A stretch of 52,601 nucleotides of DNA from a virus: IMG/VR virus record IMGVR_UViG_3300037440_000461, positions 1-52,601 of that record. The stretch is one strand, 5' to 3'. Position 1 is the first letter of the stretch. Each line of letters starts with the position of its first letter. Both the position numbers and the translations under genes were made by a program. Positions 1 through 52,601 of this stretch are shown piece after piece. The notes under the pieces are model-generated. The model was not told where the DNA came from, did no database searches, and was given only the letters and a program-made list of their open reading frames with translations.

Positions 1-127
1 CCGGCGCAGCGCGTCCGATGTCCGGATCTCCGTGATGCCCAGCTCCCGGAGGACGGCGTTGACGTCCCCGCCGCTTGACTGGACCTTCGCCAGCCCGGCC
101 ACGAACCGGGCGATGGCCGTACCGGCA
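1..127. repeat. Terminal duplication, copy 1 of 2 (identical to 52475-52601)
   Basis: I compared both window ends base by base: 127/127 are identical and the identity stops exactly at the window edges. This is typical of a circular contig written out with a k-mer overlap. Confidence 0.95.
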
Positions 128-951
128 TCTTGCTCGTACGCCCGGGCGAACTCGTCCGCGCTGAGTCCGGCGGTCCGGGCGAAGACCTCCAGCTTGGCCC
201 CGCCTTCGGAGACCGCGGTGTCGATCTCCAGGAAGACTCTGGAGATGGCGGTGCCGCCGGCCTCGGCGTTGATACCGACATTGCTCAGCGCTGCGGCGAA
301 GCCCACGACCTGCTGCTCGGTCAGGCCGATCGTCCGCCCTGCGCCGGCGATCCGCAGCGCCATCTCGACGATCTCCGCCTCGGTCGTCGCGCCCTTGTTG
401 CCGAGGTCCACCACCGCGCTCGCCAGCCGATCGACATCCGCGGGCGCGGTCTGCATGATGTTCATCAGCCGGGCCAGGGCGGTGGCAGCGGCATCGCTGG
501 TGAGGTTGGTCGCCTCACCCATGTCGATCATCGTCTTGGTGAACGCGGCGACGTTCTCGCGCTGGATGCCAAGCTGGCCGGCGGCCTCCGCCACGGCGGC
601 GATCTCCGCGTGGCTGGCGGGCAGCACCGCCGTCAGGCCCCGGATGTCCTCCTCCAAGGCGGCCATCTGGGCGTCGGTCCCCTCGACGGTCTTCAGCACC
701 CCGGCCCAACTGGACTCCCAGTCGATGGCGGCCTTGACTGCCAGGCCCACCCCGGCCGCGATCGCGGCGCCAGCGACCAGCATCCCGCGGCCAAGCGAGG
801 TGAGCGCCCGGTCCACCCGGGCCTGCTGACGCTCCAGCTTGGCCAGCTCGCGCTCGAACAGGCTCGCCTCACGCCTAGACTGCCGGGTCGTGAAGGCGCT
901 CTCGTCGGCCTCGATGTTCAGGACGAGGTCACGCCGCATCGAGCCGGGCAT
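1..951 (-). CDS. Tail tape measure protein, N-terminal part (gene wraps the linearisation point and continues in 50645..52601)
   Basis: Minus-strand ATG at 949-951 has AGGAGG at 958-963. The translation MPGSMRRDLVLNIEADES...AIDWESSWAGVLKTVEG...QLGIQRENVAAFTKTMIDMGEATNLTSD...GLTEQQVVGFAAALSNVGINAEAGGTAISRVF looks like a TP901-type tape-measure core. The frame is open to base 1 and is continuous with 50645..52601 through the 127-bp overlap. Confidence 0.9.
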   Translation of the reverse strand, partial: MPGSMRRDLVLNIEADESAFTTRQSRREASLFERELAKLERQQARVDRALTSLGRGMLVAGAAIAAGVGLAVKAAIDWESSWAGVLKTVEGTDAQMAALEEDIRGLTAVLPASHAEIAAVAEAAGQLGIQRENVAAFTKTMIDMGEATNLTSDAAATALARLMNIMQTAPADVDRLASAVVDLGNKGATTEAEIVEMALRIAGAGRTIGLTEQQVVGFAAALSNVGINAEAGGTAISRVFLEIDTAVSEGGAKLEVFARTAGLSADEFARAYEQDAGTAIARFVAGLAKVQSSGGDVNAVLRELGITEIRTSDALRR

Positions 952-11397: not shown

Positions 11398-12288
11398 TCA
11401 GCGGACCGCGGTGGCGGCGAGCCACGCGTCGAGCGCGGTCACCGACCGTCCGGTCAGCCTGTCGGGGGCTGGTGCCGCGTCCGCCGGAATCGTGGCGGGC
11501 GGTTCGGCTGATCTCGCCGGCACCATGCCCAGGTCGGTCCTGGTACTCAACCGGTCGAACGCGGCGCGTGCCATGCCGGCCGGAAGCTTGTCCAGCTCAT
11601 CGAGCATCTCACGCCCGCGAGCTGCGATCGAAGTGTACGGGTTGGCGCCGTAGTTCACTGCGGATGCGTCACCACGGTTGATGTCGTAGACGTCGATACG
11701 GTACTCGGTGTAGTCCGGGGACCATCGCCCGGCGGTGATCATGAACGCGAACGACTGCTCGGTGATCGTGCCGTCCTCGATGCCGAGCACCAGATCCCTG
11801 ACGTCCTGACGTTGCGGGTTCAACCATGCCCGGTCACCCATGCCGGTGTCGTCTGACCACAGGTCCAACGTGTTGGCAACGGTGCGAGCCATCGCCAGCC
11901 CGCGGTGATTCACAAGAAACACCACGTCGGGGTCAGCCCCCAAAGTCTGCTCGGCGGCGCCATTCGACACGATCTCGGTATATGGGCCAAACATGTCCCA
12001 CATTTCGTAGCCACGCTCGTAGACGGTGGCATAGCCCTCAACCACGTAGAACTGCTTGCCGTCACGCTCCCGCTTCTCAGCTCGCAGCCGTGGCGGAGTG
12101 GTGGTCACCACGCCGGTACGCGCATCCCGCGAGCGGACCTGCCACTGGGTGCACACCGCCCGGGCCTGACCGCCCGGCGGCTCATCTGCGGCGAGCCTGG
12201 CCGACCGCTCCTGGCCCGCGCGCTGCCGCGCTTCGGCGGCCTGCGACTCGTTCATGCCGTGACCTTCGATCTCCTCGACTGGCGTCAT
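11398..12288 (-). CDS. Prohead maturation protease (HK97 / S78 family) with C-terminal extension
   Basis: VVEGYATVYERGYEMWDMFGPYTEIVSNGAAEQTL...VVFLVNHRGLAMART matches the S78 protease pattern. ATG 12288 is ATGA-coupled to the portal stop. Confidence 0.8.
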   Translation of the reverse strand: MTPVEEIEGHGMNESQAAEARQRAGQERSARLAADEPPGGQARAVCTQWQVRSRDARTGVVTTTPPRLRAEKRERDGKQFYVVEGYATVYERGYEMWDMFGPYTEIVSNGAAEQTLGADPDVVFLVNHRGLAMARTVANTLDLWSDDTGMGDRAWLNPQRQDVRDLVLGIEDGTITEQSFAFMITAGRWSPDYTEYRIDVYDINRGDASAVNYGANPYTSIAARGREMLDELDKLPAGMARAAFDRLSTRTDLGMVPARSAEPPATIPADAAPAPDRLTGRSVTALDAWLAATAVR

Positions 12289-13568
12289 TGGTTGACCTCC
12301 CCGAAGGTCGGCGACCGCGGGTAGGGCACCGCCGACAATGGCGAGACCTGCTCCCAGTGCCACGGCGCCCCCGTCCGCTCCTGCCCCTGCTCCTGGGCCT
12401 GCCGCGGTACGCCGAACAGCCGCGCGAACTCGGCTTCCTGCTCGGTTGTCAGCGGTGGCCGGTTATCCAGCTCCCGCGCCTCGGTGACCGTGAGCCGGCG
12501 GGCGGCGATCGCCGCGTCCATCATCTTGCCGCGGGTCTCCGGGTCCATCCGCAGCAACGCATCCGTGTTGAGCTTGACGAACCGGGGGCGGGGAAGCAGC
12601 TTGTTCAAGTTCTTCTCGCGCCTGGCGATCGCCGGGCCAAGGTGCATGATCAGGAACTGTAGGTTGCGGTTCGTCAGGTTCTGATAGGTGATCGTGCCGC
12701 CAGCGCTGACCGCCGCCTCGATCAAATCTGCCGGGCAGCCAAAGAAACGGGAGATGTCAGCCAGCCCGAACTTCCGGCCCTCCAGCCACTCCGTGCCCGC
12801 CTGCTCAGCCTGGATCATGTCGTATTCCCAGTCGCGGCCGTGGACCAACAGCCCGCCGTGGTCGATAGTCTCCTGGAAGCGGGCCTTGATCGCGGTCGCT
12901 TCCTTCGGCGGGATGATCTTCGCGATGTTCTTCATCCGCGCCTTGGGGATCCCACCGCCGGAGAACCAGTCGAGCGCGAACTGCTGCGCGCTCAAGTACT
13001 CGCCGATGCTCCATGCTGCGTACGCCACCGGGCTCAGCCCGAACGGCAGGCCGGCGACCACGTACTGCCGCTCATGCCACACCTGCTCAGGCTCGTACTC
13101 CACCCCACGGATGCGATAGCGCAGCCGGCCGGTCTCCTTGCGCTCGATCACCGTCACATCAGCCAGCGACTGAAGGTCAATTCGCGCCGGAAGCCCGAGC
13201 GCGTTACGTTCGGTGATCAGGCCGAAGTCGTTACCGGCCCGGTCCATGTCGAACTGGCTGGCGTACATCCAATCGCAGTAATCCCAGCGTTCCCCGCCCG
13301 GTTCCACCAACACCGGCGGCTTCGGCATCTCCACCTGCTGCTTACCCACCTGGCGGAACACGTCAATCGGGAAGGTGCTGACCAGGTCGGCGCGGATGCG
13401 TAGGCACGCCCACACCGCGCTGTGCCGCAGCGCCGAGTCGGAGGTCACCGACACCACGCCACGGCGGCCGCCGCCCGAGCGCGGCGGAATGTCCCCGTCG
13501 AACAGCGGCGGCCCGTCGATCTGCGAAACGCCGTTGCGACGGTGACGGCCGCGGGTGAACAGGCTCAC
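12285..13568 (-). CDS. Portal protein (HK97 family)
   Basis: From GTG 13568 the protein reads VSLFTRGR...SALRHSAVWACLRIRADLVSTFPIDVF...AQQFALDWFSGGGIPKARMKN.... It lies between the terminase and protease genes. The 160-codon upstream extension in the track is R/C/W-rich and overlaps better genes. Confidence 0.85.
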   Translation of the reverse strand: MSLFTRGRHRRNGVSQIDGPPLFDGDIPPRSGGGRRGVVSVTSDSALRHSAVWACLRIRADLVSTFPIDVFRQVGKQQVEMPKPPVLVEPGGERWDYCDWMYASQFDMDRAGNDFGLITERNALGLPARIDLQSLADVTVIERKETGRLRYRIRGVEYEPEQVWHERQYVVAGLPFGLSPVAYAAWSIGEYLSAQQFALDWFSGGGIPKARMKNIAKIIPPKEATAIKARFQETIDHGGLLVHGRDWEYDMIQAEQAGTEWLEGRKFGLADISRFFGCPADLIEAAVSAGGTITYQNLTNRNLQFLIMHLGPAIARREKNLNKLLPRPRFVKLNTDALLRMDPETRGKMMDAAIAARRLTVTEARELDNRPPLTTEQEAEFARLFGVPRQAQEQGQERTGAPWHWEQVSPLSAVPYPRSPTFGEVNQ

Positions 13569-13723
13569 CCGAGCCTCGCCGCCAACTGCGAGCCGCCGAC
13601 CAGGATGCCGCCGGAGATCGCCAGACCCCACCAGCCCACCCAGGTGGCCGCGCCGGCGCCAACCCCGGCCGCGACCGCCAGCAGACCGAACGCATCCAGC
13701 GCGTCCGTGATGATCTCCTTCAC
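13565..13723 (-). CDS. Small hydrophobic peptide (52 aa)
   Basis: VKEIITDALDAFGLLAVAAGVGAGAATWVGWWGLAISGGILVGGSQLAARLG. It is GTGA-coupled at both ends, to the zincin stop and the portal start. It is below the ORF-track size cutoff. Confidence 0.45.
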   Translation of the reverse strand: MKEIITDALDAFGLLAVAAGVGAGAATWVGWWGLAISGGILVGGSQLAARLG

Positions 13724-14223
13724 CGCACACCCGCCTCCGACAAGTCATCGAACAGCGCCACGGTGGACCGATCCGAGGCGTAAAGCTGGCCCTTCCGCGC
13801 GCCGTACCCGTAGCCCGGCGGCAAGGCCCAGGCTGTGAACGCCTCGGCGAAGGCCTCGAGGGGGTCGGTCGCGGCATAGTCGCCAACCGGCTCAGCCCGG
13901 TGCGCGAACCCGAGCGACGCATCCAGCACATGACCCAGCTCGTGCACCAACACCGGCAACTCCAGCACGGCCGGGCGCCCCGGCAGGACAACGGTGGTGC
14001 GGCGGTTCGTCCGGGCAGTCCCGGTCTGGTGGAACTCATAGGCGACATGCGCGGTACTGCGGTACGAGCGGCCGAACGACGCGTCCTCGTAGCGGTGCAA
14101 CCCCACGAACACCGGGTCCACCCCGCACAGGAAGTGCGGCCGGATCAGCCGGTGCATCCCCGCGGGGATCAGCGAATACGCCGCCTCGATCGCAGCCCGG
14201 TACCGGTGGTCAACGCGCTCCAT
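13720..14223 (-). CDS. Zincin-type metallopeptidase-like protein (HExxH...E)
   Basis: VHELGHVLD is followed 25 residues later by PLEAFAEAF, a gluzincin / MtfA-like flavour. The start is uncertain. The track start at 14301 adds 26 codons with only about 59 percent third-position GC, so I prefer ATG 14223. Confidence 0.6.
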   Translation of the reverse strand: MERVDHRYRAAIEAAYSLIPAGMHRLIRPHFLCGVDPVFVGLHRYEDASFGRSYRSTAHVAYEFHQTGTARTNRRTTVVLPGRPAVLELPVLVHELGHVLDASLGFAHRAEPVGDYAATDPLEAFAEAFTAWALPPGYGYGARKGQLYASDRSTVALFDDLSEAGVR

Positions 14224-14299: not shown

Positions 14300-14584
14300 A
14301 TGGAACGAAACGAGATCAGCAGACATGAGATCCTGGTCTACCAGGCACTCGCTCGGGGCCGATGGATCACCACCCGGGAGGTCGCTCAATCTACGGGAGT
14401 TGCACCTCGGACCGCTCGGGCGCACGCGCTGAAACTGGTCAAGCTAGGCATTGCAGACCAGGTCGAGGTATTCCCTGGTCACCGCTATCGGATCAGCGGA
14501 CACGCCGCCCAACGAAACCGGGGATACCATGACCGGATTCAACGGGCACGCGAGGCGCTCTACATGACAGATGACGATCAATAG
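14300..14584 (+). CDS. Winged-helix DNA-binding protein (MarR/ArsR-like), opposite-strand moron
   Basis: RHEILVYQALARGRWITTREVAQSTGVAPRTARAHALKLVKLGIADQVEVFPGHRYRI has a wHTH layout. Codon usage is atypical for this genome, with many A/T-ending codons. The 3' end overlaps the terL stop by 7 nt. Confidence 0.6.
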   Translation: MERNEISRHEILVYQALARGRWITTREVAQSTGVAPRTARAHALKLVKLGIADQVEVFPGHRYRISGHAAQRNRGYHDRIQRAREALYMTDDDQ

Positions 14585-16188
14585 ATACTCATCAGCACGT
14601 CATAATCCGCGTCGATCACCAGATGCGCCCGGGTCTCATACGCCCACCGCCCCACCGTCACCGCCACCACCGGCGCGGTATCAGACTTCGAGTCCCGCGG
14701 CGCCCACGCGATCGTGTCCCCCGACATCCGGGTACGGGCGCCGGTCACCGACGCGTCCAGATCGTCGGACGGCACCACCCGCAGCGTCCCCTGACGCACC
14801 GCGTCGATCAGCTGACCACACGCCGCGGCCATGCTCGTGGCCGTGGTCACCGCCAGGTCCCCACGGTGCGGCTCGTTCGGATGCAGCGGATCCGCGCACT
14901 TCGACACCTCGCACAGCTCCGGCACCTCGATGCCGACCTCGGCCAGATCCTCCTTCAGAGACTGGTAGGTGCCGCGGCCCATCCCGATCGCCACCGGGTC
15001 CAGCTCATCCTTCAGCTCCACCAGCCGACCCACCAGCCACTCGGTACCCGGTCGGTAGTCGATCAGTTGCCCGTGGCCCAGCTCGTCCTCGCGCAGCCCG
15101 TACACCGCCACCGCCGCGTAGTCCCGCAGCGGGGAGATGTCCGCGCCCAGCGCCACATCCCCGGCGCGCTTGGACGCCGGGTCGTGCAGTTTCGCCCACT
15201 GCCCGGCGGTGATGATCCCCTCGGTCAGATCCGGCACCCGCTGGCAGAGCACCTCGGTCCGGAACACCGCCTCCGGGTCCGTCGCCAGCGCCGACTCGAT
15301 CGCCTGGACGGTGATGGTGTAGCCGAGCGCCGGGTTCGCCTGCGCCCACGCGGCACGATCCCGCAGCCGGCAGTGAGCAGCATGCGGGGCATCGGGAGAG
15401 CGTCGGGCGCAGGTGCACTTGACGTCGTCGGGTGCCGACCACTCGAACAGGCCGAGCTGTGGGTCCGCGCCGGCCGCGCCGGCGGCCGCCGCATGGCCTT
15501 TCGCCTGCAGATCGTTGAGCACGATGGACCGGTCATCGCCGGCGTTGCTGAACCCGAAGATCTGAGCATTGCGCCGAGCCATCGTCGTCTTGGTGATCGC
15601 GCCCCACGCCAGCCAGTCAAGGTGCTCGCGCAGCTCATCCAGGTTCACGTCATCGCCGGCCTTACCGCGGCCACCGCGGCGCGACGTCGAGACGATCTTC
15701 CATCGGGAGCCGTTGGTCAGCTTGAGCGCCTTCTTGCCGTTCGTCTTGTCCACGTGCGCCTTCTCGGCGTCCAGCTCCGGCTTCGACTCGACCATCTCCA
15801 CCGCGGCGTCCCAAGCCTCCTCCGCGGTGTCCAGGTCCTGGGCCGTGCCGATCACCAGCCGCACGCCCAGCACGAACATCTTCCACAGATTCTTGACCTG
15901 CAGGACCATGGTCTTCCCGTTCTGACGGGCCACTAGCACCACGATCACCCGGAAACGGAACGACCCGTCGGGCAGCAGCTCCAACGCATGGATCAGCAGC
16001 CAGCGCTGCCACGGCAGCGGCTCAATCCCCAGCACGTCGCGGGAGAAGTCCACCGCCGAGAAGCCCTTGCTGGTCTGCGGCGACAGTGCGCAACCGCACC
16101 CGCACAGACCTGGCGGCCCGACCACCAGCGGGCGGGTCCAGAGCCTAGGTGTGATCTTCCCCCTCAGCGGCGGCGCGAAGCTCGGCAA
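14578..16188 (-). CDS. terL: Terminase large subunit
   Basis: LPWQRWLLIHALELLPDGSFRFRVIVVLVARQNGKT (Walker A) plus a C-terminal nuclease-like half. The start is uncertain: TTG 16188 or GTG 16125. Confidence 0.9.
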   Translation of the reverse strand: MPSFAPPLRGKITPRLWTRPLVVGPPGLCGCGCALSPQTSKGFSAVDFSRDVLGIEPLPWQRWLLIHALELLPDGSFRFRVIVVLVARQNGKTMVLQVKNLWKMFVLGVRLVIGTAQDLDTAEEAWDAAVEMVESKPELDAEKAHVDKTNGKKALKLTNGSRWKIVSTSRRGGRGKAGDDVNLDELREHLDWLAWGAITKTTMARRNAQIFGFSNAGDDRSIVLNDLQAKGHAAAAGAAGADPQLGLFEWSAPDDVKCTCARRSPDAPHAAHCRLRDRAAWAQANPALGYTITVQAIESALATDPEAVFRTEVLCQRVPDLTEGIITAGQWAKLHDPASKRAGDVALGADISPLRDYAAVAVYGLREDELGHGQLIDYRPGTEWLVGRLVELKDELDPVAIGMGRGTYQSLKEDLAEVGIEVPELCEVSKCADPLHPNEPHRGDLAVTTATSMAAACGQLIDAVRQGTLRVVPSDDLDASVTGARTRMSGDTIAWAPRDSKSDTAPVVAVTVGRWAYETRAHLVIDADYDVLMSIY

Positions 16189-22830: not shown

Positions 22831-25572
22831 TCACCAGTCCGGCCACTGGTGCGGGGAGTGCGGAGAATGCGGGGAGTGTCCCGGGTCGGTCGGACCTGTT
22901 TCCCCCTGACCAAGATCATCTTGACGCTCTCGCGCGTTAGGACCTGAACTACTCCCCGCAAACCCCGCACTCCCCGCAGACGATCTTTCATATGTCACAA
23001 TTTGCCACAGATTCGCCCCGGCACGGTTCTGACCGCGCCTCCGAGCCGCTTTGCCGTTCGCCCAGCGCCCCTCACGGTTCCGAAGCCACTTCCCGAGCGA
23101 CCTTGACAGGCCATGCGGATTGCTCCCCTTGGATGTCTTCTCACTCAGGTCGCCCGGCAACGCATCTACAGGGATCGAAGCGGCGTGCACGATGCCGACC
23201 CGGTCGAGTAGCTCCGGAACGGTCCAGGTCGCATCCCCGAAGACCCGGTGTACCGCGTCCAGGAACACCCCCCACTCGTCCTCCCCGGCGGTCTCACCGG
23301 ACGAGTCGGGATGGTCGAGGGTCCCGTCGATGCCGGCGTTTCCGAGGATGCCCCGCAGCGTGGTGATCCACCCGGCGTACGAGTCGGACCGGTCGGCCGC
23401 GGACCGGGGCATGCCGGCGACCACCCAGCTGCAGGTCATGGTCAGTAGCGCCGCGACGATCTGGCCGCGCCGCTGGCGGACCCAGAGCTCGAAGTTCTCG
23501 ATGGCGAACCCGGTGCGCCGGTGCGGTTCGGGCATGGCCGGGTCGATGGTCACCCAGAGGGTCCGCCGGGGCAGGTCCCCGCCGATGAGCAGGTTGTTGC
23601 CGGTGAGCACCCACAGCCGGTCGTTCGGCCGGGACACCATCTCGTTGACTCCGAGCCGGCGGTCGTCCCACCGGTTGGAGGTGAGCAGCCCGGCCAGGGT
23701 GGAGGAGGTGAGCATGCCGGACACGTTGTCGAACTGGACCACCGGACCGGTGGTCACGTCCAGGATGGCGGTGATCTGCTTCCGCAGCTCGGCGTCATCT
23801 TCGGGCATCTCGGACCGGAATACGCCGCCGTGGACGATCCGCAGCATCGACGCGAGCAGGCTCTTGCCCGATCCGGGCATGGGCGCGCCGATCGCCACCA
23901 GCTTGTACGGCGGGGGGGTGAGCAACCGCAGTAGTGGGGTGAGCAGCGCGCCGTAGATGTTGGCCCGGTCGTGGTCGGTCAGGAACGGGAACCCGGCGGT
24001 CATCTCCTGCAGCAGCGCGACCGCCGCCGCCAGCTCCGCCACGGACGGTTCCACCGGCACCGGAGGGATGGTCAGCCCGGGTTCAGGAAGGTGCAGCAGC
24101 CGGGTTTCCGGATCGTACCCGGCGGCGGTAAGGATGCTGCCGTCGGCCCGCACCACGGGGGTGTGGGTGGCGCCGCGGAGCCGCCGGAGGTGCCGCATCA
24201 TGTCCAGCGCGTTGGCGGCGGTCTGGGCGGCCGCGGGAGGGAACAGCGCCGGCCGGGTGATCTGGTTTCCGTTCCTGGTGATGGCGGTCCGGCTACACCG
24301 GTACCGGTAGCTGACGGCGGCGGCGAGCCCCGGGGCGGTGACGACCCGGATCTGGGCTGGCCCGTCGTTGTCTTTCTCCCGGAGTGAGAGGGGGATGTAC
24401 CCGTCCTCGCCTTCCCGGGGGGTGAACACCAGGTCATCAGCGCGTAGGAACATGCCGGCGAGCTGCCCTCGGCCGAGCTGGTCGCGGAGCCAGTCGGCGG
24501 CGACCGCCGGGTTGGTCACGTCCAACTCCAGTCGTACCGCCGCCTGGTTAGCCGGCGGTTCCTGCCGCGGCTGGTCTCGCTGATGGGGGACTTCGCCGAC
24601 CAGGTCGTAGAGGTCCTGGTCGGTTTCGCAGCCGCATGCCTGGTCGGGTTGGGGGTTGCCGGCGGCGGCGAGCCGGATCGCGCCGAGCAGCAGATCTCGG
24701 TACTCGGCGGTGGCCTCCGAGGTGGATCGGGTCTCCCCGCCGTGGGCCGGGTTGCTGGCGGCGACCACGAACGCGTTCCCGAGCTGGCCGAGGGCGTCGT
24801 AGACGCCGGCGTGGCCTTCACCGCCGAAGCCGGCCAGCGCCCGGGAGGCGGACAGGGCCAGGTCGTGGCGGGCACCACCGGCCGGGTCCGCCAGCCGGCG
24901 GACCGTTTCGGCGAGCAGCAGCGCGACCGGGGGGCATTGCGGCCCGGGGCGTAGGTGCCGCAGCCAGGTGGCGGACCCGCCGGCGCCGAGGTCGGCCGGG
25001 TTGGTCCGCTGCCGCGGCCGGGCGAGCCCGGCCACCCACGGTAGCGGCAGCTCGGGCAGGTCGGCGGGTCCGGGTATCCGGTCGGCGACCCGCCCGGCCG
25101 GTGTGCGCCACTCGTATTTGCGGCCGGTGTCCGGGTGCACCGAGGGGGCGGCGACGAGGTACCGGTGGCCGGCGTGGATGGTTTCGATGCCGGGTAGCGC
25201 CCCGACCCAGTTGACGCCTACTGGTACCCGGAACAGCCGGATCGCGGAGATACCGTCGTCGCGGCTGGTGGATGTCCAGGTGGCCGGTAGCGGCCCGTGT
25301 TCGATTTCCAGATCGGTGAGGGTCTGCGCACCGGGTTTCCCGTCGTAGGCGTCCACGTCGATGCCGAGCAGGTCGGCGGGTAGCCGGATCGCGAGGTTCC
25401 CGGCGCCCCTGTCTTCGGTCCACGTGTGGATGTCGGGGTAGGACGGATAGGGGGCGCCGTGGCCGGTCCACCCGTCCGGTGGAGGTTTCTTGGCCGCCGG
25501 GGGAAGTGGCAGGATGCCGCGCCAGCCGGCCTGCCAGTACGCGTCGGCGGCGGCCGCGTACGGGCCGGTCAC
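22831..25572 (-). CDS. Bifunctional primase-polymerase (prim-pol) fused to D5/P4-type SF3 helicase
   Basis: The N-terminus GWRGILPLPPAAKKPPPDGWTG...NLAIRLPADLLGIDVDAYDG is prim-pol with DxD. The Walker A GAPMPGSGKSLLASM lies in the C-terminal half. GTG start, GTGA-coupled. Confidence 0.9.
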   Translation of the reverse strand: MTGPYAAAADAYWQAGWRGILPLPPAAKKPPPDGWTGHGAPYPSYPDIHTWTEDRGAGNLAIRLPADLLGIDVDAYDGKPGAQTLTDLEIEHGPLPATWTSTSRDDGISAIRLFRVPVGVNWVGALPGIETIHAGHRYLVAAPSVHPDTGRKYEWRTPAGRVADRIPGPADLPELPLPWVAGLARPRQRTNPADLGAGGSATWLRHLRPGPQCPPVALLLAETVRRLADPAGGARHDLALSASRALAGFGGEGHAGVYDALGQLGNAFVVAASNPAHGGETRSTSEATAEYRDLLLGAIRLAAAGNPQPDQACGCETDQDLYDLVGEVPHQRDQPRQEPPANQAAVRLELDVTNPAVAADWLRDQLGRGQLAGMFLRADDLVFTPREGEDGYIPLSLREKDNDGPAQIRVVTAPGLAAAVSYRYRCSRTAITRNGNQITRPALFPPAAAQTAANALDMMRHLRRLRGATHTPVVRADGSILTAAGYDPETRLLHLPEPGLTIPPVPVEPSVAELAAAVALLQEMTAGFPFLTDHDRANIYGALLTPLLRLLTPPPYKLVAIGAPMPGSGKSLLASMLRIVHGGVFRSEMPEDDAELRKQITAILDVTTGPVVQFDNVSGMLTSSTLAGLLTSNRWDDRRLGVNEMVSRPNDRLWVLTGNNLLIGGDLPRRTLWVTIDPAMPEPHRRTGFAIENFELWVRQRRGQIVAALLTMTCSWVVAGMPRSAADRSDSYAGWITTLRGILGNAGIDGTLDHPDSSGETAGEDEWGVFLDAVHRVFGDATWTVPELLDRVGIVHAASIPVDALPGDLSEKTSKGSNPHGLSRSLGKWLRNREGRWANGKAARRRGQNRAGANLWQIVTYERSSAGSAGFAGSSSGPNARERQDDLGQGETGPTDPGHSPHSPHSPHQWPDW

Positions 25573-39829: not shown

Positions 39830-40003
39830 CTACCCGCCTCCCCAGAACGCCAGAACCGCTACGACGACCAGCGTGTTGACGACCACGACGCTCAGGGCAC
39901 TACCGGGTTGCATCGGCTCCCTCGGCCTGCCGACGCTGAGGACGGCCCCTGCCGCATTGACCGCCAGCAAGGCGACCAGTAGCCACTTCACGAGTTCAGC
40001 CAT
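39830..40003 (-). CDS. Small membrane protein (57 aa, 2 TM)
   Basis: ATG 40003 with a GGAGGA RBS (MAELVKWLLVALLAVNAAGAVL...VVVVNTLVVVAVLAFW). Confidence 0.45.
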   Translation of the reverse strand: MAELVKWLLVALLAVNAAGAVLSVGRPREPMQPGSALSVVVVNTLVVVAVLAFWGGG

Positions 40004-40256
40004 CGCTATCCTCCGTCGCCGACCGCCGACGCCCGGGCTCCTTCCGCCAATTGGCGCCCTTCCCCGGCCGGCCACGCATCGCCTCGTCCAGCCGCGCCTG
40101 AAGGTACAGCTTCTTCCGCCCGTCCAGCATGGCGTCGGGGGCCAGCCGGAGCCGGGAGATCGCCGAGGTGATGGTGTGCGGGGCGAGCCCGTAGCGGGCG
40201 GCGGCCTGCTCCACGGTGAGCGCCAGCCGCCCGTCGAGGGTGATCCGGATCTTCAC
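39996..40256 (-). CDS. Small HTH DNA-binding protein (possible excisionase-type)
   Basis: LTVEQAAARYGLAPHTITSAISRL is HTH-like. 86 aa, GTGA-coupled. The Xis role is only a positional guess. Confidence 0.5.
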   Translation of the reverse strand: MKIRITLDGRLALTVEQAAARYGLAPHTITSAISRLRLAPDAMLDGRKKLYLQARLDEAMRGRPGKGANWRKEPGRRRSATEDSDG

Positions 40257-40618
40257 GGTCCCTCCTGTCCGGTGCCGACCCGCAGCACGGTTGCCCGGCC
40301 CGTGTCCAGCTCGTGCTGTACACGCTCATCGTTGACACGCCTGGCTAGGCTGCCGGTGCTGCGCCACGGCGCGTCCGACCCGGGGTGGACCATCATCCAG
40401 ACGATGGTGGCGGTGGCTACGACGCTGCCCTCGGGTAGGTCGGCGGCGCGGGGTGAGGGTGGCGGGTCGCCGGGCATGATCCTGCCGTAGGGCGCCGGGC
40501 AGTCGCAGCCGTCCACGTCACACCCCGCCTCGCGATGGATACGCACTTCATGGGCGCAAGCCAGGCATCGGAGTCCCTTCGGTGCCGGCATGCGTAGCGC
40601 TGGGTGAATGTCAGCCAT
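40253..40618 (-). CDS. Cys-rich hypothetical protein (121 aa), first gene of a leftward operon
   Basis: ATG 40618 (MADIHPALRMPAPKGLRCLACAHEVRIHREAGCDVDGCDC...). TACCCT (40625-40630, minus strand) lies 6 nt upstream of the ATG, which is leaderless geometry. Confidence 0.5.
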   Translation of the reverse strand: MADIHPALRMPAPKGLRCLACAHEVRIHREAGCDVDGCDCPAPYGRIMPGDPPPSPRAADLPEGSVVATATIVWMMVHPGSDAPWRSTGSLARRVNDERVQHELDTGRATVLRVGTGQEGP

Positions 40619-40817
40619 GCTCCCAGGGTACACCCGGTGGCAGTCTCAACGTCGTACTTGCAGCCACAGCACGTCATCCGAATGGGTGAACTTCCCCCAG
40701 GGACTTGTGTTTGCCGTGCCAGTGCTGCATACTAGAGATACAAAGACATAGGGGTTCCGGGCCAAACGAGAACAGCGGCCACCGCGGGTAGAACCGCCAG
40801 GGACAAGAGAACCGAAG

Positions 40818-40927
40818 CCTGGTGCTTCGAGGGGAGCCGATCGTTTCCCCGCACTCCCACCACGACACCCGACATGCTCGGGCTGGCTGCGGGAGGCAAA
40901 TCCGACGGCTCCCCTCGAAGCGCCAGG
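40818..40927. repeat. Long inverted repeat A (22-nt arms, 66-nt interior)
   Basis: CCTGGTGCTTCGAGGGGAGCCG at 40818-40839 pairs with CGGCTCCCCTCGAAGCGCCAGG at 40906-40927. That gives 21 Watson-Crick pairs plus one G-T (G-U in RNA). Confidence 0.9.
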
Positions 40928-40935
40928 ACCCACCA

Positions 40936-41109
40936 CCTGCGGTTGCGTGGCCGGCCGGGAGGCCAGGCTACGAGAGAGGCACCCGGGAGGGTGCCGAGCA
41001 CACCGGATCACCGGTCACCCGCCCGTCAGCGGGGCGCGCCGAGTCCCCCCAGGCCTGACGGGGCCACCGGGGGGCGGGAGCCGACACCGGCCGGCCACGC
41101 AACCGCAGG
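40936..41109. repeat. Long inverted repeat B (23-nt perfect arms, 128-nt interior) flanked by a 13-nt direct repeat
   Basis: CCTGCGGTTGCGTGGCCGGCCGG at 40936-40958 pairs with CCGGCCGGCCACGCAACCGCAGG at 41087-41109. The direct repeat CAGGACCCACCAC lies at 40924-40936 and 41106-41118. Confidence 0.9.
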
Positions 41110-41149
41110 ACCCACCACACTGACAGACCTACCACCGAAGGAGCCCACC

Positions 41150-41986
41150 ATGAGCACCACACGGCACTTCCGCTACGTGCAGGCGGATGACGGCACGGTC
41201 GTCATGCACACCCGCGACCACAACGACCACTGGCAGGTCTGCTGCAAGTTCGTTGAGACCGGCGAGGACGGCGAGCGGACCGCATTCCCCGGCCCGTCGC
41301 TCCGGGAGCTGACCACCGGCTCCGACGCGGTCGGAGACTCGGATCCGGACCTGATCGCCTACCGGCATCTGACCGCCTGGCAGGATGCGTGCGCCCAGTG
41401 GGGCCGGGAGCACCCGGGCGAGCGGTTGCCGCTGCACCTGCTTGAGGAGCCCACCATCCCCACCGACACCGAGGAGCCCACCATGACCACCACCGACACC
41501 ACCACCGCGCTGGCCCTGGCCGACGCGTACGACCGGCACGCAGAGGCCGGCACCAGCCCCACCCTGCCCGCCGCCATGGTCGAGGTGGGGCTCACCGACA
41601 CCGACACGGCGGCCGAGCTGCTGACCAAGGGCGCCGGGTTGCAGTACGCCCGGGACCACGGCCTGGATGAGCTGGCGCAGCTGGCGCTGGTGCTCCCCCT
41701 GGACGCGGTGCGGGCCGACCGGCCGGCCGCCTACGCCCGGATCACACAGGCGCATGTGGCCGAGTGGGGGCCGGAGGTGGCCGCCGGTGGGGAGACGACG
41801 GTGGCCGCGCTGCAGGAGATGCTCCGGTACGTCACCGACTACGGCACCCTGACCGACTACCGCACCGGCGAGCAGATCCGGCCGGCCACCGCCGCCGAGC
41901 ACGCCCGGTCCCTGGCCGCCGGCGAGACCGGCGCCTTCGAGCTCGACGGCCGCTCCGTGTTCGTGGCGGGCGGCCCGGAGTCCTGA
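41150..41986 (+). CDS. Hypothetical protein (278 aa), two modules; second module has its own copy of the initiation region at 41483
   Basis: ATG 41150 behind GAAGGAGCCCACC (MSTTRHFRYVQADDGTVVMHTRDHNDHWQVCC...). An in-frame GAGGAGCCCACC-ATG lies at 41483 (MTTTDTTTALALADAYDRH...). The track start at 40874 runs through the inverted repeats and is rejected. Confidence 0.6.
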   Translation: MSTTRHFRYVQADDGTVVMHTRDHNDHWQVCCKFVETGEDGERTAFPGPSLRELTTGSDAVGDSDPDLIAYRHLTAWQDACAQWGREHPGERLPLHLLEEPTIPTDTEEPTMTTTDTTTALALADAYDRHAEAGTSPTLPAAMVEVGLTDTDTAAELLTKGAGLQYARDHGLDELAQLALVLPLDAVRADRPAAYARITQAHVAEWGPEVAAGGETTVAALQEMLRYVTDYGTLTDYRTGEQIRPATAAEHARSLAAGETGAFELDGRSVFVAGGPES

Positions 41987-42049
41987 CGCCGCCCGGTCCT
42001 CACCCGCTACGGCGGGCGGGGGCCGAACGAAAACCAGAGAGGACGATTC

Positions 42050-42223
42050 ATGAACACCACCGATGTGTACCCCCGCAGCGAGATCCAGCACGGTCTGACC
42101 GGCTGGCACTGGCAGGCATACAGCCGCGGGGACCAGCTGCTCGACTCCGGCGACGCGCGGACCCGGCTCGGCCTGGCGGTCGCACTGTGGCGCGCCCGCC
42201 GCCGGCTGCGCCGTACCTCCTGA
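42050..42223 (+). CDS. Small basic protein (57 aa)
   Basis: ATG 42050 behind AGAGAGGA (MNTTDVYPRSEIQHGLTGWHWQAYSRGDQLLDSGDARTRLGLAVALWRARRRLRRTS). It is below the track cutoff. Confidence 0.4.
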   Translation: MNTTDVYPRSEIQHGLTGWHWQAYSRGDQLLDSGDARTRLGLAVALWRARRRLRRTS

Positions 42224-42331
42224 CGCTGCCCGGCCCCAACCGCCTCATCACGCGGCGGGGGCCGAGTGGCGGAACAGACCCGCCACCCGACCAGCCCGGG
42301 ATGCACACCCGGGCAGAGAGCAGAGTAGATC

Positions 42332-42610
42332 ATGGCGACTCACATCGCGCTCGGGTTCGTCCGCGGCGCCAACAAGGTCTGGGTCCAGGTCGACTATGAC
42401 CCGGACTCGGAGTACCGGACCAGGTGGGCCTACTACACCGGCGGCACTATGGTGCGTGAGGAGTCCGGGGTCTACGGGGACCTGGACGCCATCAGCAAGC
42501 AGATGGTCGCGGCCGACTACCGGCCGGTGCCGGTGCCCTGGTACAGCGACCCGCCGCCACCGGCCGAGCTGCTGGGCCAGCCGGTCGAGCTACGCGAGCG
42601 CGCTGCCTGA
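42332..42610 (+). CDS. Hypothetical protein (92 aa)
   Basis: ATG 42332 (MATHIALGFVRGANKVWVQVDYDPDSEYRTRWAYYTGG...). A strong hairpin follows. Confidence 0.55.
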   Translation: MATHIALGFVRGANKVWVQVDYDPDSEYRTRWAYYTGGTMVREESGVYGDLDAISKQMVAADYRPVPVPWYSDPPPPAELLGQPVELRERAA

Positions 42611-42627: not shown

Positions 42628-42661
42628 GGAGCCCTCCCGGGCTGTCACCCGGGAGGGCTCC
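42628..42661. terminator. Bidirectional intrinsic-terminator-like hairpin between convergent transcription units
   Basis: GGAGCCCTCCCGGG-ctgtca-CCCGGGAGGGCTCC forms a 14-bp perfect stem, 18 nt after the stop at 42610. There is no U tract, as is common in high-GC actinobacteria. Confidence 0.65.
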
Positions 42662-42745
42662 CATCACTCCGCGCACCCTGCAGGGTGCAACGGAACGGCC
42701 GTTCGGTTATAGGTCGGACCTGAACCGCCAACGTCCGTTATGAGG

Positions 42746-49772: not shown

Positions 49773-50648
49773 TCACCCGGCGAAGATGTGCTCGACCAGC
49801 ACGATCCCGGCGGCGCCGGCGCCGCCGGTGAGCGCGGCCGCAGACTCGGAGTTGGCCGCCCCCGAGCCGCCCGACCCGTAGGCGGCGCCGGCCACCCCCG
49901 CCGAACCGCCGGTCTGCTGCCGCCCGCCGCCGCCCATGATGCTGCCGCCGCCGATACCACCCAGACCGCGGATCGCCTGGTAGCGCAACGCCGCCCCACC
50001 GCCACCACCGTCGACCGTCACATCGCCGGTTGCGCCGGTTCCACCGGCGGCGCCACCAATGTGGTTCGGGGTGGCTGACGCGGTCGCGACCGACCCGCCA
50101 GCGCCGCCCGGTGCTGACACGTCCGTGCCGGTCGTCCGGGTGAACGTTGAGGTCACGCCGGCGCCGCCGCTTGCTCCGGACACCCCCGCCCCGCCCGTAC
50201 CGACGGTGACCGTCTCGGTCGCACCCAGGTCGGCGGCCGGGATCACCGAGACCGCGGCCGCACCGGCCCCACCACCCGCCCCCGCCGAACACTGACCGGC
50301 TGCCGTGGCCGCCGCACCACCACCGGCGCCGCCACCACCGACCACGGTGACCCGGGCGGCGACCAGCCCCAAGGGCTTGGTCCACGTCCCCGAGCTCGTG
50401 AAAACGTCCACAGTGTCCTCCAAACTGACCTGGGTCACCCGGTAATGGTTGAGCACGTCCGCGCCGAACTCGCCATCCCACAGCTGCCCGGCCCCGGCCA
50501 CGAGCGGTAGCGATATCCCGCCCCGCACCGTGGTCCACAGCAGCTGGTTGAGGCTGCGTTCCACCAGCACCGCACCGTTCGGGTACGCGGAGATGTTGAT
50601 CAGCTGTCGGGACAGCGCGACATCGAAGGTGGACAGGTCGACGGTCAC
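49773..50648 (-). CDS. Glycine-rich minor tail protein (291 aa)
   Basis: It is coupled to the tape-measure stop. An N-terminal ~115-aa globular part is followed by a G/A/S/T-rich core ending GAAGIVLVEHIFAG. It is a paralogue of 46043..46843. Confidence 0.7.
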   Translation of the reverse strand: MTVDLSTFDVALSRQLINISAYPNGAVLVERSLNQLLWTTVRGGISLPLVAGAGQLWDGEFGADVLNHYRVTQVSLEDTVDVFTSSGTWTKPLGLVAARVTVVGGGGAGGGAAATAAGQCSAGAGGGAGAAAVSVIPAADLGATETVTVGTGGAGVSGASGGAGVTSTFTRTTGTDVSAPGGAGGSVATASATPNHIGGAAGGTGATGDVTVDGGGGGAALRYQAIRGLGGIGGGSIMGGGGRQQTGGSAGVAGAAYGSGGSGAANSESAAALTGGAGAAGIVLVEHIFAG

Positions 50649-52601
50649 CGCGCAGCCCCCGATCCCGCCCCAACCCGCCGCCGCACCTGGCGGTCATGGC
50701 CACTGATCTCGGTCCGCACGACCCGCACCACCTCATCCCCGATCTGGATGACGTTGTCCAGGTAGATCGGCCCGGCCGAACCGCCGCCCGCCCCACCGCC
50801 ACCAGAGCCACCGACCGGCCACCGGCCGGTCGCGTTCAGCGCCAGCAGATCCGCCCGGTACCGCTGCGAGACCTCAGGGTTGAGGACGATCTCCTTCGGG
50901 GTAGCAGCGATCAGCCGGCGGTCGGGCGACTCGCCGAACGGCCCCGGCACCTCCCCGCCGTGCTGGAAGCGGGGCACTCGGATGGCGCCCACCGCGGCAG
51001 TGCCGGACACCTCGAAGGAGATCCGCACGAACCGGTCGATGTTGTCGAGCTGCTCCCGCAGCCGCTTGGCGGCGGCCTCGGCCTGCTCCATCCCCGGGGT
51101 GCTCACGCTGGTCGAGACGGCATCGGGGATCGCCCGGTAGCTGTCGATCAGGTCCCGGACCGCCTCCTCCTCGAAGCCGCGCTTGATCAGGGCCGCTTCA
51201 ATCTTGTCGAGCTGGGTGTCGTACAGGGCGTTGGCGTCATCGATCGACATCCCGTTGTCGATGTTCGCCCCACGGAGGTCCTCGATCGCATCGATCTGGT
51301 CGAGCACCGCGCCGCGGTTGTCCCGACCGGCCTGGGTGTTCAGCCCCAGGGTGCGGGTGCCTTCCTCCAGCTCGGCGACCAGCTCGGCGAAACCCTCTTT
51401 GTAGGCGATCGTCGCCCGGTCCAGCGACATCTGAGCGCCGAACAGGAGGTCGAATGCCTCGCGTAGCGCATCGACGTCCTCGGCGGCCTGCTCGGCCACG
51501 GTGCCGACCTCGCCGATGCCGGCCGCGACGTCCTCGGCGGCGGCGGCCCCCACCTCGGCGGCACCCCGCCACTCGTCGAGCTGGCCGCGCAGCAGTTCGG
51601 TCTGGTGGGTCGTGAGCCCCATCTCGGCGGTCAGCCGGGCAAACGCCGCCTCTGCCTGCTCGGTGCTGCCGGCCCGTGCCATGGTGGCCAGCGCCTGGTC
51701 GAGCGCCTCCACCTTCTCCCGCGGCACCTCCAGATCCCGGCCCAGCCGGAGCATGGTCGAGCCGAACTGCCCAGGAACCTTGTCCAGGAAGTCCTGGGCG
51801 CCCCGGCCGAGCTTGTCCCACCACCGGTCATTGAGCAGGATCTCGAACTCGTCCCCAACCGCAGACAGGTCGTCACCGAGCACCCGGGCGGTCTCACCGG
51901 ACAGCTTGCCGGTCTCCTCGAACTTCGCCAGCCCGACCGTCATCGCGTCTACCGCCGGGTTCAGCTCATCGAAGATCGCCTGCTCCAGTTTGCGGGAGGC
52001 GAAGTCGAGCGCCACCAGCGCGGCGGTGACGGGGCCGAGCGCCAGCCCAATCCCGGACACCGAACGCTGGAGCGCGGTCGAGGCCAGCGCCGCCCGGCCA
52101 CCCTTGGCGGCCATCTGCTCCAGCGCGAGGTTGAAGGCATGGATCTTCGGGACGGCGATCAGCGCGGTCCCGCCCGCCAGCAGCACGGCGGCGGTCACCG
52201 CGGCCAGGATGGCGAGCGCGTTACGCAACGGCTCCGGTAGATCGGCGATCGCCCCGGTGAACCCTGCGACCGTGTCGGCCATCTCGGCGACCACCGGTAG
52301 GAAGGTCCCGCCCAGGTCGATCGCGGCCTCGTTGATCTGGTTGCGGGCGATCTGGATCCGGGCCTCCGCGGTCTGGTAGCGCCGGTTCGCCTCGTCCACC
52401 AGCGCCGTGTTCTCCTGCCACGCCTGGTTGCCGATCTGCAGAGACTGAGTCAGGTTGTCGCCACTGCCCGCCAGCCGGCGCAGCGCGTCCGATGTCCGGA
52501 TCTCCGTGATGCCCAGCTCCCGGAGGACGGCGTTGACGTCCCCGCCGCTTGACTGGACCTTCGCCAGCCCGGCCACGAACCGGGCGATGGCCGTACCGGC
52601 A
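50645..52601 (-). CDS. Tail tape measure protein, C-terminal part (continues from 1..951)
   Basis: The frame is open at the window end and continuous with 1..951. The joined gene is 926 codons. It is helical and A/E/L-rich with a hydrophobic segment ALAILAAVTAAVLLAGGTALIAV. The track start at 52576 is only an internal GTG. Confidence 0.9.
   Translation of the reverse strand, partial: AGTAIARFVAGLAKVQSSGGDVNAVLRELGITEIRTSDALRRLAGSGDNLTQSLQIGNQAWQENTALVDEANRRYQTAEARIQIARNQINEAAIDLGGTFLPVVAEMADTVAGFTGAIADLPEPLRNALAILAAVTAAVLLAGGTALIAVPKIHAFNLALEQMAAKGGRAALASTALQRSVSGIGLALGPVTAALVALDFASRKLEQAIFDELNPAVDAMTVGLAKFEETGKLSGETARVLGDDLSAVGDEFEILLNDRWWDKLGRGAQDFLDKVPGQFGSTMLRLGRDLEVPREKVEALDQALATMARAGSTEQAEAAFARLTAEMGLTTHQTELLRGQLDEWRGAAEVGAAAAEDVAAGIGEVGTVAEQAAEDVDALREAFDLLFGAQMSLDRATIAYKEGFAELVAELEEGTRTLGLNTQAGRDNRGAVLDQIDAIEDLRGANIDNGMSIDDANALYDTQLDKIEAALIKRGFEEEAVRDLIDSYRAIPDAVSTSVSTPGMEQAEAAAKRLREQLDNIDRFVRISFEVSGTAAVGAIRVPRFQHGGEVPGPFGESPDRRLIAATPKEIVLNPEVSQRYRADLLALNATGRWPVGGSGGGGAGGGSAGPIYLDNVIQIGDEVVRVVRTEISGHDRQVRRRVGAGSGAAR
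52475..52601. repeat. Terminal duplication, copy 2 of 2 (identical to 1-127)
   Basis: See copy 1. Confidence 0.95.

Follow-up and report, generated by a model that had tools for sequence, protein, structure and literature searches.

What is the role of two long inverted repeats that lie side by side between a leftward and a rightward gene start in an uncultured phage genome? The locus in question, positions 40740-41149, belongs to IMG/VR virus record IMGVR_UViG_3300037440_000461, a stretch of 52,601 nucleotides (nt) that was analyzed at its full length and is called the window below; its two hairpins are termed A and B. A first-pass annotation, made from the letters of the window, had headlined hairpin B as a possible miniature inverted-repeat transposable element (MITE) and had listed a structured 5' leader of the gene cassette starting at 41150, an independent noncoding RNA, a phage attachment site (attP) and a replication origin as further readings. 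It is the 5' leader that is supported by the comparative data, which favor a modular leader under an operator-controlled early promoter of the sigma-70 type, heading the only sizeable rightward operon. The element at 40740-41149 represents a new RNA motif family that matches nothing in Rfam; in general kind it is a familiar one, a leader RNA of a phage early operon. As to how it works, our best explanation is that of a processed leader RNA, which we put forward tentatively and at somewhat less than even confidence.

Two long hairpins in a gap without coding signal

The inverted repeats were recovered just as they had been described. The arms of hairpin A (40818-40839 and 40906-40927) form 22 bp with a single G.T, those of hairpin B (40936-40958 and 41087-41109) form a perfect 23 bp, the 13-nt direct repeat CAGGACCCACCAC lies at 40924-40936 and 41106-41118, and the local stems CCCGA-catgc-TCGGG and GGCACCC-ggga-GGGTGCC (40978-40995) are both present. 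The two hairpins are the top two inverted repeats of the 52.6-kb window. The suggestion that perfect stems of more than 20 bp are rare in such a genome also held, as 30 shuffles of the window that kept its dinucleotides gave longest perfect arms of 12-16 nt, compared with 23 here. In the RNA-folding check, the 423-nt region folded at -224 kcal/mol (z = -7.4 against dinucleotide shuffles), and the minimum free energies of the hairpins taken alone were -71.5 kcal/mol for A and -120.7 kcal/mol for B, each with z = -7.4.

No credible open reading frame (ORF) fills the gap, in agreement with the first reading of the locus: the periodicity of GC at third codon positions is lost over about 40620-41140 and returns sharply at the ATG at 41150. 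The ORF that runs from 40874 to 41986 across the repeats is not supported as coding, and insertions or deletions of 1 nt within hairpin B in relatives break its frame.

The earlier view that the region belongs to no named RNA family is consistent with an Rfam 15 covariance-model scan, which gave no credible match. For the window region, with E up to 10, the scan returned only sub-threshold matches to microRNA precursors and Yfr1, which reflect generic hairpins, with a score of 26.7 bits against a gathering score of 197. Three other leader types from relatives, holding the A', B'', A2, C and D hairpins described below, likewise gave no credible match with E up to 1, only sub-threshold ones of the same sort. 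Within the Rfam scan there was no resemblance to 6S RNA, Y RNA, tRNA, tmRNA, CRISPR repeats, riboswitches, ribozymes or the antitermination RNAs of Rfam.

Selection on pairing in hairpin A and in a conserved 5' module

Relatives of the leader were found by exact-pattern scans of IMG/VR and by look-ups through homologues of the cassette protein. These gave 18 more contigs whose leader is homologous or analogous, and all of them derive from a small set of JGI metagenomes (handles such as L001 denote contigs; features are collected in Table 1). Ten of the 18 carry hairpins A and/or B at 81-95% identity, and these ten have different promoters, operators, first leftward genes and first rightward genes.

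Hairpin A bears a clear mark of selection on its structure. Eight of its pairs show compensatory changes on both sides (21 cells), a result that none of 500 shuffles reaches and that slid registers fall far below. Its helix CUCCC/GGGAG, for example, becomes CUCCU/AGGAG. This change bears on a candidate identity that we rejected, that of a CRISPR type I-E repeat or RNA anti-CRISPR mimic, which had been prompted by a by-eye likeness of GUUUCCCCGC...GCGGGAGGCAAAUCCG in hairpin A and GUGCUCCCCGG...CCGGGGAUAGGCCG in A'. No CRISPR-DR model matched, and the helix that covaries is not the repeat-like one.

The most widely conserved part of the leader is a predicted 5' module that the first-pass annotation had overlooked. 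This module, P0, would fold into a three-way junction upstream of hairpin A. Its covariance model (R1) scores 61-89 bits and finds a single match at each locus, without exception on the leader strand. The modeled pairs are 95% formed and four of them have changes on both sides, with a covariation score that none of 500 shuffles reaches and that exceeds every slid register. Reading the alignment by hand, we found that helix P1 changes from GUCCC/GGGAC to AUCCC/GGGAU in L017 and to GACCC/GGGUC in L005, and is also changed in L010. Helix P2 changes from GGCC/GGCC to GGGGA/UCCCC in L005 and L010.

Two further observations concern P0. Contig L008 has a 108-nt deletion at about 5724 (window 40765-40872) that takes away P0's 3' part together with the 5' arm of A and leaves hairpin B intact. 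In the window, the plus-strand ORF at 14301-14585 holds AAACGAGATCAGC, the very sequence that L005 and L010 have as their variant of the P0 loop. A 12/13 match to the P0 loop at 14308-14320 was considered as an antisense target and rejected, being a same-sense sequence inside that plus-strand gene.

A conserved hairpin B in changing surroundings

Hairpin B is conserved much more strongly. The mean pairwise identity among relatives is 94.7%, compared with 80.9% for hairpin A, and its interior is 94% conserved where promoters, hairpin A and flanking genes around it differ. One pair that is an A.C mismatch in the stem is restored to A-U in L008. The modeled fold of hairpin B rests on thermodynamics, perfect pairing and this one restored pair, not on covariation.

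The loop of sub-hairpin b3 (41023-41028; 6-8 nt) is exactly reverse-complemented in L002 and L008, with the stem retained. This inversion is a hairpin loop flip of the kind produced by template switching in DNA. The stems of the two hairpins also show points in common. The outermost stem sequence can be shared by both hairpins of one leader, an identical 12 nt (CCTGCAGCCTCC) being present at 5104-5115 and 5250-5261 of L016, and in the window the outer stems at 40818-40839 and 40936-40958 match at 8 of 12 positions. Mismatches in relatives fall at the 10th and 13th pairs from the base, in A and B alike.

A common layout with exchanged modules

The same layout is found in 19 contigs: a promoter, a 5' module (P0 or an alternative), then one or two long hairpins, linkers, and the ribosome-binding site (RBS) of a variable first gene. 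The 5' module is usually P0 and differs in three contigs; a scan for the alternative 5' module gave one chance match only (L027), and L020 was also judged a chance match. In the more distant contigs (L016-L019, L021, L023, L024, L026 and L029) the layout is kept and the hairpins are replaced.

At least seven hairpin sequence types can be told apart (A, A2, B, C, A', B'' and D), each 106-176 nt long and all with z between -3.6 and -8.4. Every type has a basal stem of 20-26 bp that starts with C[CU]U[GA] and ends with [CU]AGG. A and A2 have a common basal stem around unrelated interiors, and B'' and D have part of the interior in common within different stems. The A' stem shows compensatory differences between L016 and L017. 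Taken over all leaders, the linkers contain 36% A, 35% C, 24% G and 5% U on the plus strand, and the last hairpin ends 13-42 nt upstream of the first start codon in 14 of 16 leaders. The hairpins, A and B among them, are exchangeable modules that are mixed between phages, which the first-pass annotation had likewise overlooked.

Most of the relatives with hairpins A or B have extra small genes inserted directly after the last base of hairpin B (L007 5629-5968; L003 601-1300; L002 2590-2890; L001 3440-3740). Each inserted gene is bracketed by a GC hairpin (GGCCCCGGACCCCGGGGCC) and a repeated start-associated sequence, ACTGACAGACCTACC(ACC)GAAGGAG..ATG, and these brackets are probably boundary sequences where cassettes recombine. 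Among ten first genes of relatives the only Pfam or PHROG match was a Pfam one below threshold (FbpC_C_terminal, E = 0.0059, to a 53-aa protein of L018).

The leader family belongs to a clade of uncultured, high-GC phages that are probably actinobacterial. The 100-kb contig L017 (the same as L025) stands out for its arrangement, in which P0 and a single A' hairpin head an operon that spans over 9 kb, has more than 20 genes and leads towards an FtsK/SpoIIIE-like gene. It may be a phage of much larger size, or else another type of mobile element.

Promoter, operators and strand

A rightward promoter of the form TTGTGT-N17-CATACT had been proposed upstream of the hairpins. The site itself stood, being conserved in L007, L006 and L003, but its hexamers are weak and a generic promoter scanner did not call it. 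The scanner does call the equivalent promoter of L017, with 10 of 12 matches. In all 17 leaders examined, a TTG-type -35 element lies at the same position, 16-17 nt from a -10 element of the TAnnnT type, which reads CATACT in the window and in L007, L006 and L003. The geometry of the promoter is constant; its sequence and that of the operators vary from phage to phage. Transcription of the window leader would start near 40740.

The operator-like palindromes around the promoter (window 40640-40735) are lineage-specific: CACCGCNNGGTG, GTAGCTAC, GTCTAGG, CATGACAG and GTACACCGCGCGGTGTAC. The first leftward gene varies as well, encoding a ribbon-helix-helix (RHH) protein in L001 and a helix-turn-helix (HTH) protein in L002 and L010, and together the varied palindromes and genes look like distinct immunity or regulator specificities. 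A motif, CCGAAAG(G/T)(A/T)TGA, recurs about 20 nt upstream of the -35 element.

Selection on pairing within one strand, in the small interior helices and in P0, points to a single-stranded nucleic acid. That this is the plus strand is indicated by the position of the promoter, the single orientation of P0, the excess of A over U in the linkers, and the plus-strand U.G pairs of helix P1, which would be A.C on the other strand. A strand test that compared G.U with A.C in RNAalifold consensus folds was rejected as circular, because it gives about 4:1 for whichever strand is folded.

Genome and cassette context

The window belongs to a tailed phage with a GC content of about 70%. Nearly all of its genes, which include tail and amidase genes, are on the minus strand (Table 1). 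The cassette behind the leader is the sole plus-strand unit save for the small gene at 14301-14585. On one side of it the leftward early operon begins (first gene from 40618), and on the other the late genes end. Its ORFs have no Pfam or PHROG match and homologues were found only in JGI and Logan metagenome data. The cluster of GC hairpins downstream of it probably marks the end of the operon, at its convergence with the late (lysis and tail) genes. The first leftward gene has two candidate starts, ATG 40618 or GTG 40633.

Table 1. Leader elements and surrounding features of the window, with strand where assigned
Feature	Position	Strand	Description
Rightward early promoter	40705-40733	+	-35 TTGTGT 40705-40710, 17-nt spacer, -10 CATACT 40728-40733
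5' module P0	40748-40809	+	62-nt predicted three-way junction; covariance model and covariation
P0 helix P1	40754-40758 with 40800-40804	+	
P0 helix P2	40760-40763 with 40777-40780	+	conserved 13-nt loop AAACGAGAACAGC
P0 helix P3	40784-40787 with 40794-40797	+	loop GUAGAA
Hairpin A	40818-40927	+	110 nt; 22-bp basal stem (one G.U), 66-nt interior with CUCCC/GGGAG and CCCGA/UCGGG
Linker A-B	40928-40935	+	ACCCACCA; A/C-rich, single-stranded; part of first repeat copy 40924-40936
Hairpin B	40936-41109	+	174 nt; 23-bp perfect basal stem, branched 128-nt interior
Sub-hairpin b1 of B	40978-40995		GGGA loop
Sub-hairpin b2 of B	41002-41015		
Sub-hairpin b3 of B	41018-41033		
Sub-hairpin b4 of B	~41041-41074		compound C-run/G-run hairpin
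Direct repeat, copy 2	41106-41118	+	CAGGACCCACCAC; last 4 nt of hairpin B and A/C-rich tail
RBS and start of first cassette gene	41137-41143, 41150-41152	+	GAAGGAG and ATG; coding periodicity begins at the ATG
Cassette behind leader	41150-42610	+	ORFs 41150-41986, 42050-42223 (or from 41987), 42332-42610
Three GC hairpins at cassette end	42629-42708		first is a 14-bp perfect stem at 42629-42662
First gene of divergent leftward operon	40256-40618	-	121 aa, Cys-rich N-terminus, no known family
DNA-binding-like protein	39996-40256		86 aa, after the 121-aa leftward gene; phrog_597, E = 3.5e-6
Portal gene	12285-14048		
Primase-polymerase gene	22831-25572		
Tape-measure gene	50645-52576		

No DNA match was found among the GenBank phages of INPHARED, in near or distant mode, and the cassette protein was unmatched there too. 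The portal protein is only about 27% identical to those of Mycobacterium phages. By these comparisons the window phage is without a close cultured relative. Among the window ORFs we found no integrase, reverse transcriptase or transposase, and the window has no tRNA or tRNA-like sequence.

Some side observations concern the genes themselves. The 278-aa ORF at 41150-41986 joins three modules in frame. At least two of these stand as genes of their own in relatives (L023, 121 aa; L018, 53 aa), and an internal start-associated sequence, GGAGCCCACCATG, is kept at its first module junction. The ORF at 14301-14585 was unlisted; it would encode a winged-helix-like protein of about 94 aa (MERNEISRHEILVYQALARGRW...), is lower in GC and sits as an insertion, on the opposite strand, with the terminase gene on one side and the genes upstream of the portal gene on the other. 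Tape-measure frames run off both ends of the window (1-951 and 50645-52601, both on the minus strand). A tape-measure gene split in this way would fit a circularly permuted complete genome; a simple junction puts the frames 1 nt out of register.

Proposed processing of the leader by RNase III

The unrelated hairpin types share only a near-perfect basal helix of about two turns, which is the size of an RNase III substrate, and for this reason we propose that the basal helices are processing stems. RNase III needs about 20 bp of double-stranded RNA and excises the ribosomal RNAs (rRNAs) from long stems. It also cuts the early leaders of T7 (site R0.3) and lambda (the N leader). The near-uninterrupted stems considered here are 22 bp in hairpin A, 23 bp in hairpin B and 20-26 bp over all types. 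By analogy, we infer a processing mechanism in which cleavage is predicted only. Host RNase III would cut the long basal stems of the hairpins, which would detach the 5' module P0 and release the folded interior domains as discrete RNAs. The cassette mRNA would be left with a short, defined 5' end just upstream of its RBS, setting its stability and translation. The interior of hairpin B, being the most sequence-constrained, presumably binds a protein or another RNA, and the conservation of hairpin B together with the cassette-like exchange of modules suggests that the interiors have sequence-specific partners.

Several points weigh against this proposal. For uncultured metagenomic contigs such as these, transcription, RNA ends and cleavage are all inferred. 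Hairpin B has no covariation with changes on both sides, because it is too conserved, and several relatives have chimeric hairpin A stems with two or three mismatches. At the non-Watson-Crick positions of the basal stems, G.U and A.C are roughly equal on the plus strand, so single mismatches look neutral and the stems alone cannot identify the functional strand. RNase III, to our knowledge, has no need for CCUG/CAGG termini, and the processing model therefore does not explain their conservation. The elaborate, conserved interiors would be superfluous for a simple processing site. The model also leaves unaccounted the identical tails after both hairpins in some phages, the role of P0, the chimeric A stems and the deletion in L008, a contig in which P0 and hairpin A seem dispensable unless it is an assembly artefact.

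A bolder form of the proposal, which we would not expect to hold, makes the hairpins exchangeable 'RNA gene cassettes', carried in CCUG...CAGG processing stems behind P0 as a loader and released to act in trans, for example on host defence or on the host's transcription or RNA-decay machinery. It would be just as new if P0 turned out to be the first RNA-based processive antiterminator of actinobacterial phages.

Possible antitermination or attenuation

The main rival to a processed leader is one that controls elongation. P0 would most plausibly act in cis on RNA polymerase, which would then read through the GC hairpins downstream, or the long hairpins would attenuate transcription until relieved by a factor. 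The element is promoter-proximal, in cis and at the head of an operon in every contig, with position and orientation conserved, and in L017 the operon it heads is long (more than 9 kb, more than 20 genes). GC hairpins that might be read through are also present: they lie between the cassette genes of the window (41990-42020, 42230-42265 and 42299-42316), relatives carry GGCCCCGGACCCCGGGGCC after each inserted gene, and L017 has a 13-bp perfect hairpin at 5925-5954. However, these downstream GC hairpins lack U-tracts and no canonical U-tract terminators lie inside the operons. The operon of the window is only about 1.5 kb with three or four genes, whereas the very long leftward operon, which runs from early into late genes and would be the neediest, has no such leader. 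Nor does the leader match any Rfam family. On this balance we consider antitermination or attenuation unlikely.

Two systems of plasmid pLS20 are instructive in this respect. The RNA conAn2, which is large, confers antitermination and acts in cis only, lies where the conjugation operons of Gram-positive plasmids begin, and its pLS20 core consists of 238 bp of structured sequence, a GC-rich tract with stem-loops, bracketed by a 20-bp inverted repeat, a geometry like that of hairpin B (PMC8191782). However, mutations in this 20-bp inverted repeat left antitermination unaffected (PMC8191782); because the repeats are dispensable there, the shared geometry does not argue for a shared function. No ConAn1-like partner was identified, the flanking proteins being without a Pfam or PHROG family and no ConAn1 sequence comparison having been made. 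As to attenuation, long-stem leader hairpins of mobile-element operons can attenuate (PMC13401043). In the zipper-type attenuator of pLS20 (cATT), a long hairpin lies between an upstream weak stem-loop and a downstream intrinsic terminator, and the halves are complementary (PMC13401043). We rejected this type for the window, where no intrinsic terminator follows the hairpins and the linkers (AAGAGAACCGAAG, ACCCACCA, ACCCACCACACUG...) are not mutually complementary.

The hairpins were also considered as intrinsic terminators in their own right, and rejected. There is no U run in their tails (ACCCACCA...), they are branched and 110-174 nt long, and a terminator scanner finds none on the plus strand of the region.

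Possible RNAs acting in trans

The hairpin interiors could instead be genes for noncoding RNAs that ride on the early transcript and act in trans, as regulators of the lysis-lysogeny or early-late decision or as decoys that oppose a host defence or tie up a host protein. We think this rather improbable as a separate explanation. It would account for a hairpin B interior that stays 94% the same in surroundings that are swapped or diverged, and for modules that behave like exchangeable genes, with new cargo in the same stem and the same cargo in a new stem. Small, variable, family-less early genes behind a strong, operator-controlled promoter are typical of counter-defence loci, and phage counter-defence loci have 5' untranslated regions (UTRs) that can carry functional RNA motifs (preprint 10.64898/2026.07.27.740549), which is an analogy only. 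Against this stand the lack of unusual conserved complementarity to other phage transcripts and of resemblance to any Rfam family. Moreover, no terminator follows the hairpins that could yield a discrete RNA, so that release would need processing, and to this extent the trans-acting reading overlaps with the processed leader.

An antisense or RNA-immunity function of the P4 CI or P1 c4 type was rejected, as its best 16-mer (40063-40078) is not conserved in the homologous gene of L006, L007 and L008. This 16-mer is an exact copy of part of the 3' arm of hairpin B (CCCGGCCGGCCACGCA) inside the 86-aa leftward gene, and we judged it a chance occurrence.

A DNA element as an unlikely reading

It is very unlikely, in our view, that the region functions as DNA, whether as a replication origin (one of the alternatives first listed), a single-strand initiation site or a packaging signal, by extruding DNA hairpins or cruciforms. 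Long perfect inverted repeats with G- and C-runs do occupy the only large intergenic gap, the basal-stem mismatches are strand-neutral, folding the complementary strand gives a consensus of equal or greater stability, and the b3 loop inverted in L002 and L008 is the signature of a hairpin formed in DNA during replication. However, the element always lies between promoter and first RBS in one orientation, the small interior helices and P0 show compensatory changes and G.U pairs on the plus strand only, and the linkers are strongly strand-asymmetric. Iterons and an AT-rich unwinding element are missing from it, and the cumulative GC skew does not turn here. A better origin-like candidate is the repeat array at 22850-22978 at the 3' end of the primase-polymerase gene, where a 28-nt inverted repeat (22850-22877 and 22951-22978; 89% complementary, with TGCGGGGAGT-like units) is the third-best of the window.

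MITE and attP

The headline of the first-pass annotation, a MITE-like insertion of hairpin B with 23-bp terminal inverted repeats and a 13-bp target-site duplication, did not survive, and we now see hardly any prospect for it. What had suggested it is real: a perfect 23-bp inverted repeat with CAGGACCCACCAC on both sides, in a family whose hairpin modules are clearly exchanged between phages. Matching flanks also recur: the tail after hairpin B repeats the A-B linker, as ACCCACCA... in the window and L008 and as ACAGCA... in L002 and L007, where a different short repeat of 10 nt (CAGGACAGCA or CAGGGCAGCA) flanks hairpin B. However, the tail is unlike the linker, and the flanking repeat missing, in five of the nine leaders with both hairpins (L006, L003, L001, L015 and L005). 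The first 6 of the 13 repeat bases, CAGGAC, are the closing motif common to all hairpin modules and not a target sequence. The window has a single hairpin B and so has each related contig, in every case directly after hairpin A, and no transposase is nearby. The search for dispersed copies, by exact match of an invariant 20-mer of the hairpin B interior to 185,579 species-representative bacterial and archaeal genomes and to JGI metagenome contigs, gave four bare chance matches (L011-L014). The search of IMG/VR for an empty site, using the predicted junction CCAGGACCCACCACACTG, returned only an unrelated AT-rich contig (L028).

An attP site is practically out of the question: a large non-coding region with repeats would suit one, and there are temperate phages among the relatives, L015 and L016 having small tyrosine recombinases, but those lie about 1.8 kb and five or six genes from the leader, the element is present with or without an integrase, no sizeable ORF of the window has a recombinase domain, no tRNA-like sequence is present, and the genome scan with one hairpin B 20-mer gave no true match. 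The argument made earlier against a retron RNA stands, as neither the neighboring nor the other large ORFs contain a reverse transcriptase domain.

Significance and comparison with known systems

The lambda nut sites, HK022 put and the T7 RNase III sites have taught us much about elongation control and RNA processing, and we know of nothing comparable described for high-GC actinobacterial phages. The leader described here fronts fast-evolving early genes without known family, the kind of locus usual for counter-defence. If it is true that the hairpin domains are released as trans-acting RNAs, these phages would shuffle RNA genes in cassettes in the way they shuffle protein genes. The family also supplies seed alignments for wider mining with covariance models.

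Among DNA elements, MITEs and integron attC sites come closest. Like them, the family has hairpin units with conserved termini (CCTG...CAGG), variable interiors, some flanking direct repeats and neighboring variable cassettes. It differs in having one copy per genome at a fixed site with no transposase or integron integrase, and in interior helices that covary as in a functional RNA. Compared with attC, the units are clustered upstream of genes rather than placed after each cassette, and attC core sites are missing.

The operons of anti-CRISPR and Aca genes (acr-aca) resemble the locus in that a small HTH or RHH regulator gene adjoins 5'-UTR motifs, which are bound by the Aca regulators (preprint 10.64898/2026.07.27.740549). 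The acr-aca motifs, however, consist of one or two short hairpins (about 20 nt) which overlap the RBS and co-vary with the Aca protein, whereas P0 is constant where the adjoining regulators differ (RHH, HTH and others) and the hairpins are ten times larger. The conAn2 leader is comparable in that a mobile-element operon is headed by a leader RNA, 260-600 nt long; it differs in belonging to low-GC Firmicutes plasmids, in needing the ConAn1 protein for long-range action and in having no sequence similarity. The zipper attenuator of pLS20 requires an intrinsic terminator and complementary flanks, both of which the window lacks.

The RNA-only processive antiterminators, HK022 put and the Bacillus EAR element, are likewise folded RNAs that act in cis close to the promoter, and at 62 nt P0 is similar in length to put (about 70 nt). 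However, put consists of two stem-loops joined by one base, P0 is a predicted three-way junction, and no Rfam match was obtained here. The precursor stems of 16S and 23S rRNA, which are RNase III substrates, share with the hairpins a long, near-perfect helix, made by the 5' and 3' flanks, that encloses an independently folded domain, with tandem units per transcript. The domains enclosed here differ in being 66-130 nt long, not rRNA, and placed in an mRNA leader.

A general parallel is provided by the early leaders of lambda (PL - nutL - RNase III hairpin - N) and T7 (A1-A3 promoters - leader - RNase III site R0.3 - gene 0.3), in which processing defines the 5' end of the mRNA and its translation. 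As in the window family, a long untranslated leader comes after an early promoter that is strong or repressor-controlled, and within this leader a small RNA element that binds protein precedes a long hairpin just upstream of the first RBS. There is no similarity in sequence or by covariance model, P0 is a three-way junction rather than the boxA/boxB pair of lambda, and RNase III cleavage is, in the present case, a prediction. What sets the window family apart from both is its one or two larger, branched hairpins (110-175 nt), with perfect basal stems of 20-26 bp, conserved interiors and modules that are swapped.

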